Source of the DNA: Candidatus Altiarchaeales archaeon
GTDB taxonomy: Archaea; Altiarchaeota; Altiarchaeia; IMC4; SCGC-AAA252-I15
Length of the DNA stretch: 64,000 bases
Direction of reading: 5' to 3'
NCBI GenBank assembly: GCA_014727915.1
Contig: WJMO01000006.1
Location: 472,762 to 536,761, forward strand
In this document: positions 5,966 through 43,721 of the stretch, one piece after another
Position numbering within the stretch: the stretch's first letter is position 1
Layout of the letters: each line of letters opens with the position of its first letter
Translations under genes and position numbers: made by a program
Notes under the pieces: generated by a model
What the model saw: only the letters and a program-made list of their open reading frames with translations
What the model was told of the DNA's origin: nothing
Databases searched by the model: none

Positions 5966-6457
5966 ATGAGGTTACTGGCCGTCCTGGCGCTCGCCCTGCT
6001 GGCCTGCGGGTGCATGACAGGAGCTTCAGAAGAGCCTGTGAAGGTCGTGGACGTGGGCTCTGACCAGGGGAGAGTCGTGGAATCGGTGGTCGAGACTACC
6101 ACAACAACTGTAGAGGTGGCGGAGACGGTCGATACGGCGGAACCCCAGGAAGGCGATGTCATCGAGGTCGGAGACGACGTGGTCATAGAGATAAGACAGA
6201 CCACAACATCAACCACCGCAACTTCAACTACCACAACATCCTCCACTACAACAACCACTACGGATTCCACGACCACAACAACTTCCACGACCACGTCGAG
6301 CACATCTTCGACCACGCTTCCGTGCACCATAGAATGCTATGAGATAGAATACCCCAACCCCAGCAGCTGCGAACGGGGATGCTGCATAAGCGAGAACACC
6401 AGATGCCAGTACATAACCGGCGGACTGAGCCAGGGCGGACGGTGCAGGTGCCGTTAG
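5966..6457 (+). CDS. Secreted Thr-rich (mucin-like) lipoprotein with a Cys-rich C-terminal module
   Basis: Signal peptide ending LLACGC (lipobox-like), a long T/S tract (TTTSTTATSTTTTSSTTTTTT...), and a C-terminal 8-Cys module. Confidence 0.5.
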   Translation: MRLLAVLALALLACGCMTGASEEPVKVVDVGSDQGRVVESVVETTTTTVEVAETVDTAEPQEGDVIEVGDDVVIEIRQTTTSTTATSTTTTSSTTTTTTDSTTTTTSTTTSSTSSTTLPCTIECYEIEYPNPSSCERGCCISENTRCQYITGGLSQGGRCRCR

Positions 6458-15326: not shown

Positions 15327-15478
15327 GGGCCTGTAGCCTAGCGGATAAGGCGACAGCCTTCTACGAGCCCCTTTCTTTTAAAAAAAGAAAGGTGCTTCAC
15401 CCCCAAAGAAAAAAATAGGGTGGTGAGGAAGGGTTCGGGGATAGCTGTAGATCATGGGTTCGAATCCCATCAGGCCCA
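15327..15478 (+). tRNA. tRNA-Arg (anticodon TCT) with a 79-nt intron at the canonical 37/38 position (intron 15364-15442)
   Basis: Hand-folded cloverleaf: acceptor GGGCCTG/CAGGCCC, D-arm GCCT-AGCGGATA-AGGC, anticodon stem ACAGC/GCTGT with loop CTTCTA|A, 5-nt variable loop, T-arm ATGGG-TTCGAAT-CCCAT, discriminator A, no encoded CCA. The intron holds a perfect 9-bp hairpin CTTTCTTTT-aaa-AAAAGAAAG. Confidence 0.7.
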
Positions 15479-35028: not shown

Positions 35029-37170
35029 GTGGTTGGGATGGTTTCTAAGGTCAAAAAGAGAGACGGGCGGACAGTCAAGTTCAACAAGCAGAAGATAGTA
35101 GACGCGATAGAGAAGGCCATAGAGGCCGTTGAAGACAATGACGGAGAGGAAGCCAGGAAGCTCGCGGCCAAGGTCGTCAAATACCTGAACAGGAAGTATC
35201 GGGGCAAGACGCCCACGGTCGAGGAGGTCCAGGACGCTGTGGAGAACGTTCTCATAGACGAGGCTGACCCGGAAGTAGCTAAAGCATACATACGTTACAG
35301 GGACGAGCGAAAGAGGATACGGGAGGCCAAGTCGATGATGGGCGTTGACGACGACATCAAACTCTCATTGAACGCTGTCAAGGTTCTGGAGAAGAGGTAT
35401 CTGATAAAGGACGACAACGGCGTCGTGGAGGAGACTCCTAAGCAGATGTTCCACCGGGTCGCCAACAACATAGCCGAGGCTGACAAGGTTTACGACAAGA
35501 AAGCGGACGTGAGGAAGACCGCGCGGGAGTTCTACAACGTCATGGCCTCATTGGAGTTCGTCCCTAACAGCCCCACGATGATGAACGCGGGCCGCCAGCT
35601 GCAGCAGCTTTCAGCATGCTTCGTCCTGCCAGTCGAGGACACCATGGACAGCATATTCGAAGCCATAAAGAACACCGCCCTCATACACCAAAGCGGCGGG
35701 GGGACCGGCTTCAGCTTCTCCAGGCTCAGGCCCAAAGGCGACATAGTCGCGTCTACCAGCGGGGTTGCCAGCGGCCCCCTGTCCTTCATGAACGTCTTCA
35801 ATGCAGCCACCGAAGTCATCAAACAGGGAGGAACGAGGAGGGGGGCTAACATGGCCATACTGAGGGTGGACCACCCGGACATACTGGACTTCATAACAGC
35901 GAAGGAGAAGGAGGAGGTCCTCAACAACTTCAACATATCCGTGGGCCTGACAGGCGAATTCATGAAGGCGGTAGAGCACAACCAAGAGTACGAGCTCATA
36001 AACCCCAGGACAAAGGAGGTCGTGAACAAGATAAGCGCGCGCACCGTCTTCGACCTCATAGTCACGATGGCCTGGAAGAACGGGGAGCCGGGCATAATCT
36101 TCCTTGACCGGATAAACCGGGACAATCCCACCCCTTCTATAGGGGAGATGGAATCAACCAACCCCTGCGGGGAACAGCCGCTCCTGCCCTATGAGGCGTG
36201 CAATCTGGGAAGCGTTAACCTGGCCAAGATGGTCGACAACGGGAAGATCAACTACCGGCGATTGAGGAGGGTTGTTCACACGGCCGTCCACTTCCTGGAC
36301 AATGTCATTGACATGAGCAAGTTCCCACTGGATAAGATAACAAAGATGGTGAAGTCAAACCGGAAGATCGGATTGGGCGTGATGGGCTTCGCGGACATGC
36401 TGCTTGAGATGGGAATAGCCTATAACAGCGGGGAGGGCGTTGAGGCGGCACGGGAAGTCATGAAGTTCATAGACGAGGAGTCGAAGAAGGCTTCCGTTGC
36501 GTTGGCTGAGAAGAGGGGCAGCTTCCCGAACTTCAAGAAGAGCACCTGGAAGGAGAGGGGCTATAAGATGCTCAGGAACGCCACCACCACGACCATCGCC
36601 CCGACAGGAACCATCAGTATCATAGCCAACAGCTCAGGGGGCATAGAGCCGTTGTTCGCCATATCTTTCATACGGAACATACTGGACAACACCGAGATGA
36701 TAGAGGTGAACCCAATATTCGAGAGGGTGGCCCGTGAGAGGGGATTCTACAACGACGACCTTATGCGAAAGATCGCGAAGAGGGGCACCATACAGGACAT
36801 AGACGAGATACCAGATGATGTGCGGAGGGTTTTCGTCACGGCCCATGACATCACGCCCGAATGGCATGCCAGGATGCAGGCTGCTTTCCAGGAGCACACG
36901 GACAACGCAGTATCCAAGACTGTGAACTTCCCGAATCACGCCACCACAAGCGACGTCGAGGAAGTGTACATGCTCGCATACCGTCTCGGGTGCAAGGGAG
37001 TCACCATATACCGAGACGGAAGCAGGAGCAACCAGGTCTTGAACATAGAGTCCGTTAAGAAATCCCCCGGTGGAGTGGAGAGCGCATGCCCCGAGTGCGG
37101 GGGCAAACTCTCCTTTGAGGAAGGATGCAGCAAATGCCACGGCTGCGGTTACTCTGTCTGCAGCGTCTGA
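35029..37170 (+). CDS. nrdJ: Adenosylcobalamin-dependent (class II) ribonucleotide reductase
   Basis: N-terminal ATP-cone ([21 protein letters not shown]), catalytic core ([15 protein letters not shown]) and a C-terminal Zn ribbon CPECG...CSKCHGCG. 713 aa. Confidence 0.85.
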
Positions 37171-37177
37171 GATCAAG

Positions 37178-37759
37178 ATGAGAAAGCGCAAGAGGAAAGG
37201 ACTGGTTCACGTGTACACAGGTGAGGGTAAGGGAAAGACCAGCGCGTCCGTTGGTTTGGCCACCCGCGCACTGGGGCATGGGCTGAAGGTGTACATGATA
37301 CAGTTCCTCAAGGGCGGAGGGCATTCCGGGGAATACCTCGCCTCAAAGGAGTTCCTACCGAACTTCACCATCAAACAGTTCGGGAAACCATGTCCCTACA
37401 GCGAGGAGATGAAAAAGGGGACGATGGAGTGCGGCAACTGCAAGGACTGCTTCCTAAGCCGGCGTGAAGAGCGGGAGAAAGTCAGCGAGGGGTTGGAGCT
37501 GGCTGAGAAGATAGTGAAGTCTGGGAAATACGATGTTGTGATATTGGACGAGATAAACAACGCGGTAAGCAGGAAGCTAACTTCGGTTTCGAAGGTGGTG
37601 AAGCTGATAAGGGGGCGTAAGTCCAATGTCGAGCTCATACTAACTGGCCGGCACGCCCCCAAGGACGTCATAGACGATGCGGACTACGTCACAGAGATGA
37701 AGCGAATAAAACACCCTTTCATGAAGGGTGTTAGGGTGCGGCATGGGATAGACTACTGA
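37178..37759 (+). CDS. Cob(I)alamin adenosyltransferase (CobA/CobO/BtuR family)
   Basis: P-loop VYTGEGKGKTSASVGLATRALGHG...QFLKGG, with a CGNCKDC insertion. Start moved to the internal ATG at 37178, just after the nrdJ stop. Confidence 0.7.
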   Translation: MRKRKRKGLVHVYTGEGKGKTSASVGLATRALGHGLKVYMIQFLKGGGHSGEYLASKEFLPNFTIKQFGKPCPYSEEMKKGTMECGNCKDCFLSRREEREKVSEGLELAEKIVKSGKYDVVILDEINNAVSRKLTSVSKVVKLIRGRKSNVELILTGRHAPKDVIDDADYVTEMKRIKHPFMKGVRVRHGIDY

Positions 37760-37826
37760 CACACCCCTGCCTGCTAGGCGTTTCTCCCGCCATTTATATG
37801 CCTTCCCTCAGCTATCATATACTCAG

Positions 37827-38621
37827 ATGGACCTTTTCAGCATATTAGCGGGGTTGGCGTTGGTTTTGGGGGCTTTCATGCTTTTTGCCGGAGTGATGGG
37901 TATTTTGTTAACTGTTGTTGGGGTCGCTTCAGCCCTCATATTCCTGAAGACGCGACAGATAATCGTCCCGCGCGTAACCTTGTTCATATTGAACATACTG
38001 GAGGCTCCCGTCCGCTACATGCTATGGATGTTCGGTATAGAGGAGGATGTGGTGAGCAACCTGGTGATAGAGGTCCGGAACCTGCTTTACACCCGGTCCT
38101 ACAACAAGACGCCCTACAAGGACCGGGCCATATTCCTGCCCCAGTGCCTTAGAAACCCCAAATGCCCTGCTCCATTGACTCCTGAGGGCATAAAGTGCAT
38201 GGGGTGCGGGCGATGCGGGATTGGAGCCATAAAGGATGAGGCTGAGCGGCTTGGCACTAGGGTTTTCATAGCCCCGGGCAGTTCGCTTATAAAGCGGATG
38301 GTCAAGAAATACCGTCCCAAGGCTATATTGGGGGTCGGGTGCCACATGGAAGTGAACGAGGGAACCGCCAAGATGGCCTCCTACGGGCTTCCAGTCCAAG
38401 GTGTTGTGTTGGACCGTGATGGCTGCGTTGACACCCGAGTCAACGTCCTTGAACTGTTGGAGAGGATAAAATCCCACAGCGCCTACGGCAGATACCACAT
38501 CGAAGAAGACCTGGAATTCCAGGAGAAAGCCGTTGAAATATCCAAGCTTTGGGGCGCGGGCTCAGCCACCGAAGTCGAGATAATCGAAGCGGTCAAAAAG
38601 AGCGAAAAAGGCAAGTGGTAG
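37827..38621 (+). CDS. Membrane protein with a Cys cluster (DUF116-like)
   Basis: Two N-terminal TM helices, then LPQCLRNPKCPAPLTPEGIKCMGCGRCGIG. Confidence 0.4.
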   Translation: MDLFSILAGLALVLGAFMLFAGVMGILLTVVGVASALIFLKTRQIIVPRVTLFILNILEAPVRYMLWMFGIEEDVVSNLVIEVRNLLYTRSYNKTPYKDRAIFLPQCLRNPKCPAPLTPEGIKCMGCGRCGIGAIKDEAERLGTRVFIAPGSSLIKRMVKKYRPKAILGVGCHMEVNEGTAKMASYGLPVQGVVLDRDGCVDTRVNVLELLERIKSHSAYGRYHIEEDLEFQEKAVEISKLWGAGSATEVEIIEAVKKSEKGKW

Positions 38622-38639
38622 AACACGCGTCAACACCAC

Positions 38640-39060
38640 AAACAACATCCAATACTAACAGGAGGACAACACACAACCACCACTAACCACCCAATAAACC
38701 ACTAACACTAACTGATATTACCACTAACATCTAAAAAATAGCACCACTACTAACCACTTACTACTACCCAACTATTACTACCACTTACTACTACCTATTC
38801 CTTACTACCGCCACTACTACTACACACCACTAACTTTCACTACTATCTACCCCCAACTACTAGCCATCACTATCTATCACTACTATCTATTATTATTATT
38901 ATCTATTACTACTATCTATCTGTCAATAGCTACCACTACTACCTATCATTATCTGCCACTTACTACTATCTGCCACCAACCACCACTTACTAACAACTAA
39001 GACCACCCGCAACTGTCACTAACACCACCACAAGATAGCGGACAACAAACGTCATCCGCG
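38640..39060. repeat. About 420-bp G-free (plus-strand) low-complexity tract built from degenerate ACT/CCA/CTAT repeats
   Basis: The plus strand is almost exclusively C/A/T across 38640-39040 (ccactact, ctatct, tattatt repeats). It lies between convergent 3' ends. No ORFs are possible in it, since TAA/CTA/TCA/TTA are frequent. Confidence 0.8.
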
Positions 39061-40215
39061 TCATCCGACAAAGGGGCTCATCCACCTTAACCTTTCCACC
39101 ACTTCACCAACAGACACGATTACATAGTCTATCTCCTCCCATGTGTTATCCCGGCCGAGGGTGAACCTAATGCTGCCATGGGAATCCTCCGGCCTCCGGC
39201 CTATAGCAGCCAGCACATGGCTGGGTGTCAGGCTCTTGCTGCTGCAAGCGGAACCCGTGGACACGGAAATGCCCTTCGCATCCAACCCCAACAGTATCGA
39301 CTCTCCCTCAATGTGCTTGAACGAAACGTTCACGTTATTGCACAGCCTACGATCACCACGCGGCCCGTTCAACATAGTGTCAGGCAGCTCCAACAGGGAG
39401 TCGGCTAGCTTGTTCCGCAACCTTACCATATGCTTTACGTGGCTCTTTCTCGCGAGAGAAACGGCCTTACCGTAGCCTACTACGCCCGGCACATTCTCTG
39501 TCCCGGCCCGCAGATGATACTCATGGCCGCCGCCGTCAATTTGCCGCCTCAAAGAACCCTTCAGGTCCTCCCGCACATAAAGAGCGCCCACACCCTTGGG
39601 CCCGTGTATCTTATGGGCTGAGAACGAAGCAAGGCCCAACCCCTGCTTGACCACGTCAACTTCTGTCTTAGTGTGGGATTGCACCGCGTCACTGTGAAAA
39701 ACGACATCCTGATCGCCGCATACCTCCCCCAACGCCCGCAGGTCCTGTATGGTGCCTATCTCGTTGTTCCCGTGTATTATGGACACGAGGATAGTGTCGT
39801 CCTTTATGGATTCGGATAGCACATTTGGGTCTGTAAAACCTTCCTCGTCAACGGGGAGATACGTTACATTGAAACCCTCCCTCTCCAGCCCTCTGCAGGT
39901 CTCCAAAACCGCAGGATGCTCTATCCCCGTCGTTATGATGTGTCTTCCACTGTCCCTCAGCCCGTATGCGACCCCCTTGACCGCGAGATTGTCCGATTCG
40001 CTCCCGCCCGAGGTGAATACTATCTCCTCCGCCTTCGCGTTTATGGAATCCGCGAGCGTCTTCCTGCTTTCCGCCAGTGCGTTCGCGGCCTCCGCCCCCC
40101 CGCTATGCAGGCTAGAAGCGTTCGCATAGTATTCCGTGAAATAAGGCCTCATAGCGTCCAAAACCCGGCGGTCCACTGGCGTGCTCGCCCCATGGTCCAA
40201 GTAGACGTCCATCAC
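39061..40215 (-). CDS. Cysteine desulfurase (NifS/IscS)
   Basis: 384 aa. Class V aminotransferase motifs, with a PLP-Lys context (SAHKIHGPKG) and an active-site Cys region (SSGSACSS). Confidence 0.8.
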   Translation of the reverse strand: MMDVYLDHGASTPVDRRVLDAMRPYFTEYYANASSLHSGGAEAANALAESRKTLADSINAKAEEIVFTSGGSESDNLAVKGVAYGLRDSGRHIITTGIEHPAVLETCRGLEREGFNVTYLPVDEEGFTDPNVLSESIKDDTILVSIIHGNNEIGTIQDLRALGEVCGDQDVVFHSDAVQSHTKTEVDVVKQGLGLASFSAHKIHGPKGVGALYVREDLKGSLRRQIDGGGHEYHLRAGTENVPGVVGYGKAVSLARKSHVKHMVRLRNKLADSLLELPDTMLNGPRGDRRLCNNVNVSFKHIEGESILLGLDAKGISVSTGSACSSKSLTPSHVLAAIGRRPEDSHGSIRFTLGRDNTWEEIDYVIVSVGEVVERLRWMSPFVG

Positions 40216-40270
40216 AGCTTTTTTATATTATCGTGTATTTATTTAAACTAGTTTCGACGAGGTAGCTAAG

Positions 40271-40474
40271 ATGCCGACAGAAATCGATGCGGAGAAGTGT
40301 ATTGGGTGCGGAGCGTGCGTAAGCGTGTGCCCTGCAAACCCAAACGTGTATGAGATGCAGGACACCGACAAGGGCAAGAAGTCAGTCGTGAAGAACAAGG
40401 ACGCATGCATAGAATGCGGCGCCTGCGTGACATCATGTCCTGTGCAGGCCATTAAGATGGTGCCGAAAGCATAA
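40271..40474 (+). CDS. 2x[4Fe-4S] ferredoxin
   Basis: 67 aa with two CxxCxxCxxxCP motifs (CIGCGACVSVCP, CIECGACVTSCP). Confidence 0.75.
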   Translation: MPTEIDAEKCIGCGACVSVCPANPNVYEMQDTDKGKKSVVKNKDACIECGACVTSCPVQAIKMVPKA

Positions 40475-40559
40475 CTTCGGCACACATCACATCTTTCTTG
40501 CCTTTACTGGCGTAATATTTTGAGCCCTGGTTCGCCATTCCACTACCCGCTCATATCCC

Positions 40560-41202
40560 CCGAATCTCATTTCAAACCGTGCCTTCTGCTTTCCACGAAT
40601 TCCAAGGCCCTCTCCTCGTCCTTGACGAACATGACATTAGGCCCCTGACGGTGTTTCCCATGGTAGGACGGTCTTCCGATAACAATCGCCTCCTTGTCAG
40701 GCAGTAAACCGACCCCCTATCAGCCCCCAGTTCTTTCCCTCTCCGTCATCGGTGTTCCTCAAGTCAGCGACAAACACCTTCTGCGGGCTCGCGTTCACAA
40801 GCTCGGTAGCAAACAATGAACCAGCCAACTCCAGGCCTCGCGTGTCACCCCGGGCATCTGAGGTCTTATCCTGTTCTCCGGTGGCGAGAATGAGTATATG
40901 AACTCCTGCACACCCCTGTTGTCCGTAACCATTCCAAGGTTGGTGATGGTCCTCCTGCAGGTGTTCCGCACCAGGTCGACCTTGCCCGGGTCTGAGACGC
41001 ACTTGCAGACCTCACGTTGCGTTGCCGGCGCGTTGAATATCCCTATGATTGTCTCAGAATCCACACACCCCATCCCGCCCTGGCCCGGTCCCATGAGGTC
41101 CTGGTTCAGAGAGATGTCATTGCTGTGCCTCTCCCTCGGAGCTACCATAGACTCATATACGCAAACAGACAAAATAAAGGAGACAACACCAAAACAATTC
41201 AT
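40560..41202 (-). pseudogene. Probable frameshifted or degraded gene (two overlapping minus-strand frames plus a 3' fragment in a third frame)
   Basis: The ORFs 40795-41202 and 40697-41002 overlap in different frames. The downstream stretch 40560-40700 reads LPDKEAIVIGRPSYHGKHRQGPNVMFVKDEERALEFVESRRHGLK in yet another frame. No intact ORF longer than 135 aa. Confidence 0.3.
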
Positions 41203-41382
41203 AAATAATATTATAAATAATTATGGATAATTTATCAATAATTTATAATTTATCATAAATAATATGTGGTACCTAACCTGTCTTGTTCACCCGGGCCAAA
41301 AAGCATGTAGTGCCTAACTGATGGTAGGTAACCCTCAAAAAAACCAAAAGAAACCGCGGCATATCAAGCCACCCACAGAAAC

Positions 41383-42387
41383 CTACTCCTCCCCAGAGCC
41401 TTCCCCTACCTCTTCAGGGGATTTCTTCTTTCCCTTCTTACCGCCCTCCCCGAGCATTCCTGGTATCCCCCCCTCTCCTTTGAGCATCTCCCCCAAAGCG
41501 GCCGCTCCGCTCAACACCCCACTCGTCTCCACGGGCATGAATATCTTGGTGGCCTTCCCGTCCGCCATCTTCTCCAAAGCCTCCAGATACTTTATCATGA
41601 GTATGTCCTTCGTAGCCCGGCCCTTGTGTATAGCGTCGAACACCTTGCTTATGGCCCTGGCCTCCCCCTCGCTTATCAGGACCTTCTTCTTCTTCTCCGC
41701 GTCAGCGACGGTAGCGATGGCAGTGGCTTCCCCCTCTGCTGCGAGTATCTCCGAGAACTTCTTACCCTCCGCCTTCAATATCTCGCTCTCCTTTATGCCC
41801 TCCGCCTCCAATATGGCCGCCCTCTTGGTGCGCTCAGCCTTCATCTGCCTGCTCATCGCGTCCACGATATCCCTGGGCGGCTCGATGTCCTGTATCTCAA
41901 CTCGGGTGACCCGGACACCCCACCGGTCCGTGATCTCATCCAAGGTCTTCCTCAATTCGGTGTTTATCTTCTCCCTGCTGGCCAAGGTCGAATCCAGGTT
42001 GAGGTCGCCGATGATGTTCCTCAGGTTTGTCTGGGCCAATTTGCTGATGGCATCCTCGAACATGGCCACATTATACATGACCCTGAACGGGTCCGTGACC
42101 TTGAAGTAGATGACAGCGTCCACGGAGATGTTGACGTTGTCCTTGGTGATCACATCCTGCGATGGCACGTCTATCAGCGCTTCCCGCATGTCCACCCTGT
42201 ACACGACCTCAATGAAAGGGAGTATGATGCTCAAACCAGCCCCTAACGTGCGGTTATATCTGCCGAAACGCTCCACAACACCCCGCTCGAACGGCCGGAT
42301 TATGACGATGGACTTGATGGAGAAAACCACCATTACAGCAGCCACCAACATGAAAAAAACCGTTTCAGGGTCCAAAGGCGCAGCCAT
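41383..42387 (-). CDS. SPFH/band-7 (stomatin/prohibitin-like) protein with a Gly/Lys/Glu-rich C-tail
   Basis: N-terminal TM and a band-7 core (IVIIRPFERGVVERFGRY..., RDIVDAM..QMKAER). Confidence 0.8.
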   Translation of the reverse strand: MAAPLDPETVFFMLVAAVMVVFSIKSIVIIRPFERGVVERFGRYNRTLGAGLSIILPFIEVVYRVDMREALIDVPSQDVITKDNVNISVDAVIYFKVTDPFRVMYNVAMFEDAISKLAQTNLRNIIGDLNLDSTLASREKINTELRKTLDEITDRWGVRVTRVEIQDIEPPRDIVDAMSRQMKAERTKRAAILEAEGIKESEILKAEGKKFSEILAAEGEATAIATVADAEKKKKVLISEGEARAISKVFDAIHKGRATKDILMIKYLEALEKMADGKATKIFMPVETSGVLSGAAALGEMLKGEGGIPGMLGEGGKKGKKKSPEEVGEGSGEE

Positions 42388-42587
42388 ATAAGTAAAACTA
42401 TGTATCCTCCTCTATAAAATCAAAAAACTGACGGCCCTAAAACCCCCTGGAATACAACCCCCAAACCTACCATCTCCCAAGCACCTCCCCATAACTGCAG
42501 AAAACCCACAATACCCGAACTGACCCCCCTCCCCCCGTCTTCTAACAGCATTTTTAAGCCCCGCATCATATTAATACCTAAACCTCC

Positions 42588-42857
42588 GTGGTTACGATGA
42601 GTAAGCGACTTTCAGAATTATATGGGATGGACATCTACACCACCAAAGCCCAGTACATAGGCGAGGTGAAGGATGTCATTTTGAACCTTGACAAGGGAGA
42701 GGTCATGCAACTGTGTTTGTCGTCCCTCAGGGGCGGTGAAGTGATGGGCGAAGACGTTAGGCGGATCATCCAGGAGGAGAGCATCAGCTATGATGAAGTC
42801 GCTGAAGTGGGCGACATAGTCCTAGTGCAAAAGGCGCCGCCTGTCCAAAAAAAATAA
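42588..42857 (+). CDS. PRC-barrel domain protein
   Basis: 89 aa. LSELYGMDIYTTKAQYIGEVKDVILNLDKGEV matches the PRC-barrel pattern. Confidence 0.45.
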   Translation: MVTMSKRLSELYGMDIYTTKAQYIGEVKDVILNLDKGEVMQLCLSSLRGGEVMGEDVRRIIQEESISYDEVAEVGDIVLVQKAPPVQKK

Positions 42858-42875
42858 CAGGATCCTCCCTAAACA

Positions 42876-43721
42876 ATGGACGATAGGGTTTTGACTTCTG
42901 TGCTTGAGAGATTCCTACGCGAGGATGTGGGCTCCGGGGACGTTACATCGGATTTCACACCCAACCAGGAAGTGGATGCAATTATCAAGTCCCACAACTC
43001 AGGATACGTTTCCGGCATACGCGAGCTTGAGCTTCTATTCAGAAATCATGGTGTGAATGTGAGGTCACACGTCCGCGATGGCGGGCGCATACGGAGGCGC
43101 CAGAAGATAATGACACTCAAAGGCAGGTCGAGGGACATACTGACCACCGAGCGCACGGCCTTGAACGTACTCTCGCGGATGAGCGGCGTTACGACATTGA
43201 CCCGCCAGTACGTAGAATCGTTGAAGAAGTCAGGCTCCAAGGCAAAGGTCGTCGCAACCAGGAAGACAACCCCCGGAATGCGGTACTTCGAAAAGACCGC
43301 GGTCGTGTTGGGGGGCGGCCTGCCCCATCGGATGGGCTTGTACGACATGATACTGATAAAGGACAACCACCTAAGGCTCTTCGGCAACGATGTCAAAGCC
43401 GCGCTTGCAGCGGCTCGCAAATCCAGGGGAAAGGCCAAAGTAGAGGTTGAAGTCTCGTCGCTCAGGGATGCTGTCACTGCCGCCGAGAACGGCGCGGACA
43501 TCATAATGCTGGATAACATGACCCCCAGGAACATAAGGAAGGTAGTGGCCCGCCTTAAAAAAAATGGCCTGCGTGGCAAGGTGGTGATTGAGGCATCCGG
43601 CGGCGTTAGCCTACGGAACATAAGGCACTACGGCCGGGCGGGGGTGGACTGGATATCGGTCGGTAGGCTGACTCACTCAGTACCTTCCATAGACTTCAGC
43701 CTTGACGTGCTAAGGTTATAA
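42876..43721 (+). CDS. nadC: Nicotinate-nucleotide pyrophosphorylase (carboxylating)
   Basis: 281 aa. QPRTase motifs (TRKTTPGMR, MLDNM, IEASGGV). Confidence 0.8.
   Translation: MDDRVLTSVLERFLREDVGSGDVTSDFTPNQEVDAIIKSHNSGYVSGIRELELLFRNHGVNVRSHVRDGGRIRRRQKIMTLKGRSRDILTTERTALNVLSRMSGVTTLTRQYVESLKKSGSKAKVVATRKTTPGMRYFEKTAVVLGGGLPHRMGLYDMILIKDNHLRLFGNDVKAALAAARKSRGKAKVEVEVSSLRDAVTAAENGADIIMLDNMTPRNIRKVVARLKKNGLRGKVVIEASGGVSLRNIRHYGRAGVDWISVGRLTHSVPSIDFSLDVLRL

Follow-up and report, generated by a model that had tools for sequence, protein, structure and literature searches.

Why should one base be almost wholly excluded over about 400 bp in a compact archaeal genome of 53% GC, and is the DNA concerned a functional element or a filler? 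The spacer between two convergent genes of Candidatus Altiarchaeales archaeon raises this question. We analysed it within a window of 64,000 nucleotides (the whole stretch of DNA considered here) and compared it with the corresponding loci of other Altiarchaeota.

Position and base composition of the DUF116/NifS spacer

The tract fills the convergent intergenic spacer at positions 38622-39060 (439 nt, 5% G). Its left border is the stop codon of the DUF116 gene (37827-38621, plus strand, 264 aa), the product of which is 100% identical to MBD3388694.1 and MBD3416759.1 of Candidatus Altiarchaeales archaeon. On its right lies a minus-strand gene (39061-40215, 384 aa, MBD3388695.1) encoding a class-V aminotransferase (Aminotran_5), a NifS-like cysteine desulfurase. 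The convergent orientation of the flanking genes, as given in a preliminary description of this DNA made from its sequence, was confirmed, and that description was also correct in stating that the tract is not a promoter region, as it is a 3'-3' spacer directly downstream of both stop codons. The GenBank accessions of the DUF116 and NifS proteins are consecutive (MBD3388694.1 and MBD3388695.1), and the tract therefore contains no annotated feature. Exact matches to deposited proteins were found for DUF116, NifS, Fer4, and QRPTase. Identical proteins occur in two GenBank series (MBD33886xx and MBD34167xx), and this points to the deposition of two assemblies with one gene order. In the 90% protein clustering, the cluster of MBD3388695.1 has an unrelated JGI peptide of 43 aa as its representative, a database artefact without biological meaning, and because of this representative the homology search with NifS did not return the identical protein.

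The base counts of the spacer are 159 A (36%), 153 C (35%), 103 T, and 24 G (5%). Its nearly G-free core (38666-38921, plus strand) has 3 G among its 256 nt. Its runs without G measure 48, 68, 52, and 58 nt, and they are the longest four in the window. The GC skew in the tract is between -0.8 and -0.95, and its GC content is 33-39% versus 53% for the window. The tract alone, within the 64 kb, yields 200-nt windows with less than 7% G, while no comparably C-poor 200-nt windows occur in the same 64 kb. The archaeal loci used for comparison, about 0.9 Mb in all, contained no equivalent G-depleted tract, bar one locus of 30% GC where the depletion is trivial. The tract is real and statistically exceptional, and the first observations, of a plus strand nearly devoid of G over some 400 nt and of its unusual character in a dense prokaryotic genome, were accurate. 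The interpretation of this bias as an extreme segregation of purines and pyrimidines was not, since pyrimidines make up 58% of the plus strand and A makes up 36%, and no pyrimidine run on it exceeds 6 nt. The asymmetry of the tract is a depletion of G.

A tandem repeat with periods of 15, 24, and 30 is located in coding sequence at 6200-6261. It is composed of ACC, ACA, ACT, and TCA codons and encodes a Thr/Ser-rich linker of a likely secreted protein. Positions 6219-6261 of this repeat form a G-free stretch of 43 nt, superficially similar to the tract but in frame and open.

Repeat structure, coding potential and RNA structure

Decomposition of positions 38743-39000 (plus strand) showed a cryptically simple repeat mosaic of CTA (24 copies), CCA (14 copies), CTAT (12 copies), and TAT (5 copies), and these four tokens cover 69% of that interval. 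The numbers of distinct 5- to 9-mers in the tract gave z scores of -8.7 to -13.5 against dinucleotide-preserving shuffles, so that the tract is repetitive beyond its dinucleotide composition. TRF detected overlapping degenerate arrays with periods of 3, 13/14, 17, 23, and 27 and matches of 64-80%, and the repeat search detected two families, D1 and D2, with 4-5 copies of 39 and 44 nt and an identity of 62-82%. The repetitiveness noted at first sight was confirmed. CTA is found 42 times in 361 nt, at irregular spacings of mostly 3-10 nt. The longest exact internal repeat is 16 nt, which makes the length of the tract unambiguous for an assembler at any usual k-mer size.

The autocorrelation of the tract has peaks at 3, 7, 10, 13, 17, 20, 23, and 27 nt and onward, and its Fourier spectrum has one strong component, at 3.3 nt. 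This period is that of a mix of tri- and tetranucleotide units, unlike the period of 3.0 of coding sequence. A 10-nt helical periodicity, which the autocorrelation peaks at 10, 20, and 30 might have indicated, was rejected because the Fourier spectrum has no 10-nt fundamental.

Comparison of the aligned repeat copies showed that 44 of their 102 differences are to T and 8 are to G. This deficit of G is significant even when G is allotted a 20% share (P = 6e-4). GC-to-AT mutational bias is universal, and the deficit, which lies beyond a simple neutral expectation, could be due to this bias or to constraint.

The preliminary description stated that stops are frequent in every frame. This was the case for the minus strand, with 20-23 stops per frame or a stop about every 7 codons, but not for the plus strand, with 5-6 stops per frame. 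The stops of the plus frames are all TAA, and two of these frames are open over about 92 and 80 codons; few stops and long open stretches are expected on this strand because G-free DNA can form only TAA. The open plus frames encode residues of the T/Y/L/H/I/P type and no charged residues, and no ATG, GTG, or TTG start codon is present on the plus strand of the 439 nt. Since the ORF listing requires a start codon, these open stretches were invisible to it. The tract is non-coding, as had been concluded on the count of stops, and it is so by the lack of a start codon on the plus strand, the lack of charged residues in the open frames, and the period of 3.3 nt rather than 3.0. The lack of a plus-strand start codon and the stop roughly every 7 codons on the minus strand make the composition of the tract translationally inert.

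Folding of the plus-strand RNA gave an MFE of -15.3 kcal/mol over 439 nt (z +0.92), and this RNA is essentially unfolded, while the minus-strand RNA is no more stable than its shuffles (z -1.0). No Rfam family was found in the tract, either at the gathering threshold or with E values up to 10. The proposal of a structured C/U-rich RNA is not supported by these results. Elsewhere in the window, Rfam identified a tRNA of 152 nt at 15327-15478 (59.6 bits) which was missed by ARAGORN; from this length, an intron of about 80 nt can be deduced, and such tRNA introns are typical of archaea.

The longest pyrimidine run of the tract is 6 nt and its longest purine run is 7 nt, which argues against the H-DNA or triplex-forming region that had been envisaged. 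Motifs with four runs of at least three C or G, as for an i-motif or a G-quadruplex, are absent; the tract has three runs of at least three C in 361 nt and four weak two-tetrad candidates. The repeat search revealed no inverted or ORB-like repeats in the tract. Archaeal origins consist of ORB or inverted repeats flanking an AT-rich unwinding element and usually lie beside orc1/cdc6, whereas the tract is without inverted repeats and has DUF116 and nifS as its flanks. The cumulative GC skew of the window reaches its maximum near 38 kb because a run of plus-strand genes is followed there by minus-strand genes. The maximum tracks gene orientation, and the tract is missing from relatives that share this gene order; no evidence was found for the suggested replication or recombination feature.

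A nine-pair hairpin, GCGGATGACGTTTGTTGTCCGC, is located directly after the nifS stop (39038-39059, minus strand) and is the sole stable local structure in the spacer. It is the only result kept from a sigma-70 promoter scan, which was set aside as inapplicable to an archaeon. The hairpin is overlapped on the nifS strand by a perfect 9-nt tandem duplication, two copies of CGTCATCCG at 39050-39067, which spans the nifS stop codon. The duplication of CGTCATCCG creates a second in-frame TGA (Val-Gly-stop-Arg-Gly-stop), with the stops three codons apart. This duplication at the edge of the tract is a slippage footprint. The sole A or T homopolymer of at least four in the spacer is an A6 on the plus strand at 38733-38738, which is a T6 on the minus strand about 325 nt downstream of the nifS stop. 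No run of at least four T is present on the plus strand of the 439-nt spacer. U-tracts function in archaeal termination (PMC8716108, PMC11616081), and the T6 is a candidate oligo-U terminator for nifS.

Lineage-specific gain and origin of the tract

Comparison with five Altiarchaeota loci that have the same convergent pair showed that the DUF116/NifS spacer is 1, 31, 0, 6, and 0 nt long, versus 439 nt here. The order DUF116 (plus), NifS (minus), and then Fer4 is common to all five. With spacers of 0-31 nt in 5/5 relatives, the tract was therefore gained in this lineage and is dispensable at this locus. It is a lineage-specific gain placed exactly between two stop codons and not a conserved part of the locus. 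A normal short spacer in related genomes had been named beforehand as a finding that would speak against the tract; it was found, and since these relatives are distant (53-66% protein identity), it shows a lineage-specific gain and not that the tract is unreal. The tract is cryptically simple DNA, with over-represented motifs, degenerate arrays, and a lineage-specific gain.

The genes flanking the tract belong to a conserved Altiarchaeota block (35029-43721) which comprises NifU, RNR, CobA, DUF116 (plus), NifS (minus), Fer4 (plus), a variable slot, Band_7 (minus), PRC, and QRPTase, and which is also present at loci L081, L083, L084, and L085 with 53-67% protein identity. NifS is missing in some lineages (L001, L081), where Fer4 directly follows DUF116. 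DUF116 and NifS are full length in comparison with their relatives, and no gene is found at the position of the tract in these relatives. After the identical protein, the next closest DUF116 was 67% identical in the protein search and 64% identical in the scans of genome and metagenome contigs, and no close relative of the source genome was found in the collections searched by DUF116.

The slot between Fer4 and Band_7 (40486-41202) contains ORFs of 135 and 101 aa in different minus frames, neither with a Pfam match, which by eye look like one gene broken by frameshifts. The same slot is occupied by a KaiC-like ATPase in L085, an acetyltransferase in L081, and a small protein in L001, and by nothing in L083; the KaiC-like gene is absent from the 64-kb window. 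Downstream of Band_7 lies an AT-rich degenerate tandem array (41192-41263) of about 6.6 copies of an 11-mer, AAATAATTTAT, and the spacer at 41203-41382 is 180 nt long here versus 23 nt in L085. The difference in length makes the array another low-complexity expansion specific to this lineage, lying less than 2.5 kb from the main tract. Between the divergent Band_7 (minus) and PRC-barrel (plus) genes, the spacer at 42388-42587 is likewise poor in G on the plus strand, with 34% A, 38% C, 8% G, and 20% T, and contains C-runs such as CCCCCCTCCCCCC; this spacer is 132-161 nt long in relatives.

BLAST searches of the window and of 165 loci gave no similarity to the tract better than that of the reversed-sequence control, with 55 versus 52 bits in the normal alphabet and 28 versus 27 bits in the G-to-A-collapsed alphabet. 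A scan of viral contigs (viral_contigs) for three copies of ACTACTA matched only viral contigs rich in AT, of which many are giant-virus MAGs. The base-depleted windows of viral contigs were rejected as candidates, being either trivial at 15-35% GC or fully open Thr/Ser-rich coding sequence.

We regard the tract as most likely a filler produced by slippage, rather than a functional element that has been conserved. Our preferred reading, to which we assign a probability of roughly 0.6, is that replication slippage expanded repeat DNA in a 3'-3' spacer that tolerates it, and that this DNA is probably transcribed, passively, into the 3' tail of nifS as far as the T6. Repeated slipped-strand mispairing or unequal exchange would have expanded and shuffled a short G-free seed of the CCA-CTA-CTA or CTAT type, and in part degraded it, in the 3'-3' DUF116/nifS spacer where extra DNA breaks no promoter or reading frame. 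The scarcity of G would be inherited from the seed motifs, and it would persist because the later changes, mostly slippage of the motifs and replacement of C by T, introduce no G. The tract would have no sequence-specific function. Passive transcription would give the nifS mRNA a C-poor 3' tail of about 325 nt, up to the T6 at 38738-38733, and read-through of DUF116 transcription across the tract is probable because the plus strand has no run of at least four T in the spacer.

We infer the slippage origin, the neutrality, and this pattern of transcription from several observations: the gain of the spacer relative to five relatives, the z scores, the 69% token coverage, the 3.3-nt period, the TRF arrays, the duplication at the edge, the second expansion 2 kb away, and the copy differences, which are mostly to T. 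The lack of RNA structure, Rfam match, inverted repeats, usable ORF, and annotated gene was counted in the same sense. Among the explanations offered in the preliminary description, that of a hypervariable satellite came closest, in that the tract is a slippage-type simple-repeat mosaic gained in the lineage. Two observations weigh against neutral slippage. The avoidance of G (8/102) is above that of a naive neutral model and could indicate constraint besides mutational bias. Such tracts are also very rare in compact archaeal genomes, and since no equivalent was found in about 0.9 Mb of ordinary-GC loci, the persistence of 440 bp of filler is itself unusual.

A functional termination or insulator zone between the convergent units is unlikely: archaea have, to our knowledge, no Rho, the same convergent pair has spacers of 0-31 nt in five relatives, the G depletion is absent from the other convergent spacers in the window, and 440 nt far exceeds the size needed. 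Such a zone would work through a rut-like RNA on the DUF116 side, open to binding by a termination factor such as FttA/aCPSF1, and through the G-rich non-template strand of nifS (35% G, 5% C), which would favour R-loops and pausing before the T6. The excess of C over G (35% versus 5% over 439 nt), the essentially unfolded plus-strand RNA, the position directly downstream of both stop codons, and the single T6 on the minus strand are consistent with it. Rut sites are described as C-rich and G-poor over 70-80 nt, and FttA is reported to cleave at CA/CC dinucleotides downstream of U-rich RNA (PMC8501993). The action of FttA is analogous to that of Rho (PMC11616081). However, FttA favours U-rich and not C-rich RNA (PMC11616081), and the plus strand has no run of at least four T. 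A selected strand-specific element that would separate the convergent units, with an RNA of C, A, and U that cannot fold when read one way and a non-template strand rich in G and prone to R-loops when read the other way, appears somewhat less probable still; the one hint of it is the excess of G avoidance among the repeat variants. It is distinctly improbable that the tract is an assembly or sequencing artefact, that is, low-complexity junk between truly adjacent genes. The tract comes from one MAG and no independent contig carries it, the relatives have nearly no spacer here, and low-complexity tri- and tetranucleotide strings are a known type of long-read noise. Both flanks are nonetheless the correct syntenic neighbours, which excludes a chimeric join; a tract with exact repeats of at most 16 nt assembles unambiguously; the neighbouring genes checked are intact, with DUF116, NifS, Fer4, and QRPTase matching deposited proteins exactly; and the two accession series suggest two assemblies with the same gene order.

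The density of CTA (42 in 361 nt, mostly 3-10 nt apart) could also make the tract a non-coding RNA sponge or platform, offering about 40 CUA triplets in the plus-strand RNA, or UAG triplets in the minus-strand RNA, to a repeat-reading RNA-binding protein, by analogy with the (U/G)AG sites of TRAP or HutP and with decoys of the CsrB/CrcZ type. The RNA would be single-stranded and accessible, and the avoidance of G in the copy differences hints at constraint. We consider this very unlikely, as the spacing of the motif is irregular, a promoter of its own is not evident, Rfam gave no match, the tract is conserved in no relative, and TRAP and HutP are bacterial. Still lower in probability is a decayed or hypermutated coding remnant, either a Thr/Tyr-rich linker like that at 6200-6261 or a gene copy that underwent G-to-A hypermutation. 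It would account for the two plus frames open over 80-92 codons and rich in T/Y/L/H/P, for the likeness to the Thr-rich coding repeat of ACC/ACA/ACT codons at 6200-6261, and for a plus strand that is A-rich and G-poor as such hypermutation would leave it. This reading is already largely refuted: no start codon is present on the plus strand, long open frames are to be expected where only TAA can be a stop, the period is 3.3 nt and not 3.0, DUF116 and NifS are full length while relatives have no gene at this position, and the similarity to the 165 loci and the window was not above that of the reversed control in either the normal or the G-to-A-collapsed alphabet. The strong strand asymmetry and the peak of the cumulative GC skew near 38 kb would suit non-B DNA (H-DNA or triplex, G-quadruplex, i-motif) or a replication origin, terminus, or recombination site. 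Neither is at all probable with pyrimidine and purine runs of at most 6 and 7 nt, no motif of four C3+ or G3+ runs and only four weak two-tetrad candidates, no inverted or ORB-like repeats, a skew maximum that coincides with the change of gene orientation, and the same gene order in relatives without the tract.

Comparison with known systems

If the tract is slippage filler, as we prefer, it is a curiosity which would indicate that compact archaeal chromosomes occasionally gain and tolerate several hundred strand-biased bases at 3'-3' junctions, and it could be used to mark strains of this Altiarchaeales population. If the avoidance of G is selected, a composition-only signal would add a new type to the termination or insulation signals of archaea. 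The selected element, if true, would be analogous in composition to rut sites or to the GC-skewed terminators of eukaryotes, in a lineage without Rho or a known equivalent. No finding presented here requires the reading of the tract as a selected signal.

GC-skewed, R-loop-prone terminator regions occur at the 3' ends of eukaryotic genes. The tract resembles them by the G-rich non-template strand downstream of nifS, which is followed by the T6. It differs from them by its lack of conservation among relatives. The tract also resembles bacterial rut regions, which are C-rich, G-poor, unstructured RNA immediately downstream of a gene. Its composition is that of a rut region (35% C and 5% G over 439 nt, MFE -15.3 kcal/mol), but we know of no Rho in archaea, the tract is about five times as long as a rut site, and the resemblance is one of composition only. 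Archaeal factor-dependent termination uses FttA (PMC11616081).

The tandem repeats of Borgs, elements of Methanoperedens, are enriched in A, with G apparently converted to A, and slippage has been proposed for them; the units of their intergenic repeats have lengths that are mostly not multiples of three (PMC9879509). Like these repeats, the tract is archaeal, intergenic, recent, absent from close relatives, and biased in composition (PMC9879509). Borg repeats are perfect head-to-tail copies of one unit and pervade the element (PMC9879509), whereas the tract is chromosomal, is the sole G-depleted tract in 64 kb, and is composed of several motifs. Its copies are 62-82% identical and its longest exact repeat is 16 nt, so that the perfect unit copies typical of Borg repeats are not found in it.

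Cryptically simple sequence, a concept of the Tautz type, and degenerate micro- and minisatellite DNA are made by replication slippage, and length polymorphism is a hallmark of cryptically simple and satellite loci. Models of slippage have been reviewed (PMC7430839). The tract differs from other cryptically simple DNA in that about 400 bp of it are rare in compact prokaryotic genomes and in that one base is almost fully excluded. It resembles such DNA in being a scrambled mosaic of a few motifs of 3-4 nt with overlapping degenerate higher-order periods, over-repetitive for its composition, non-coding, and lineage-specific, with a short perfect tandem duplication at its edge.
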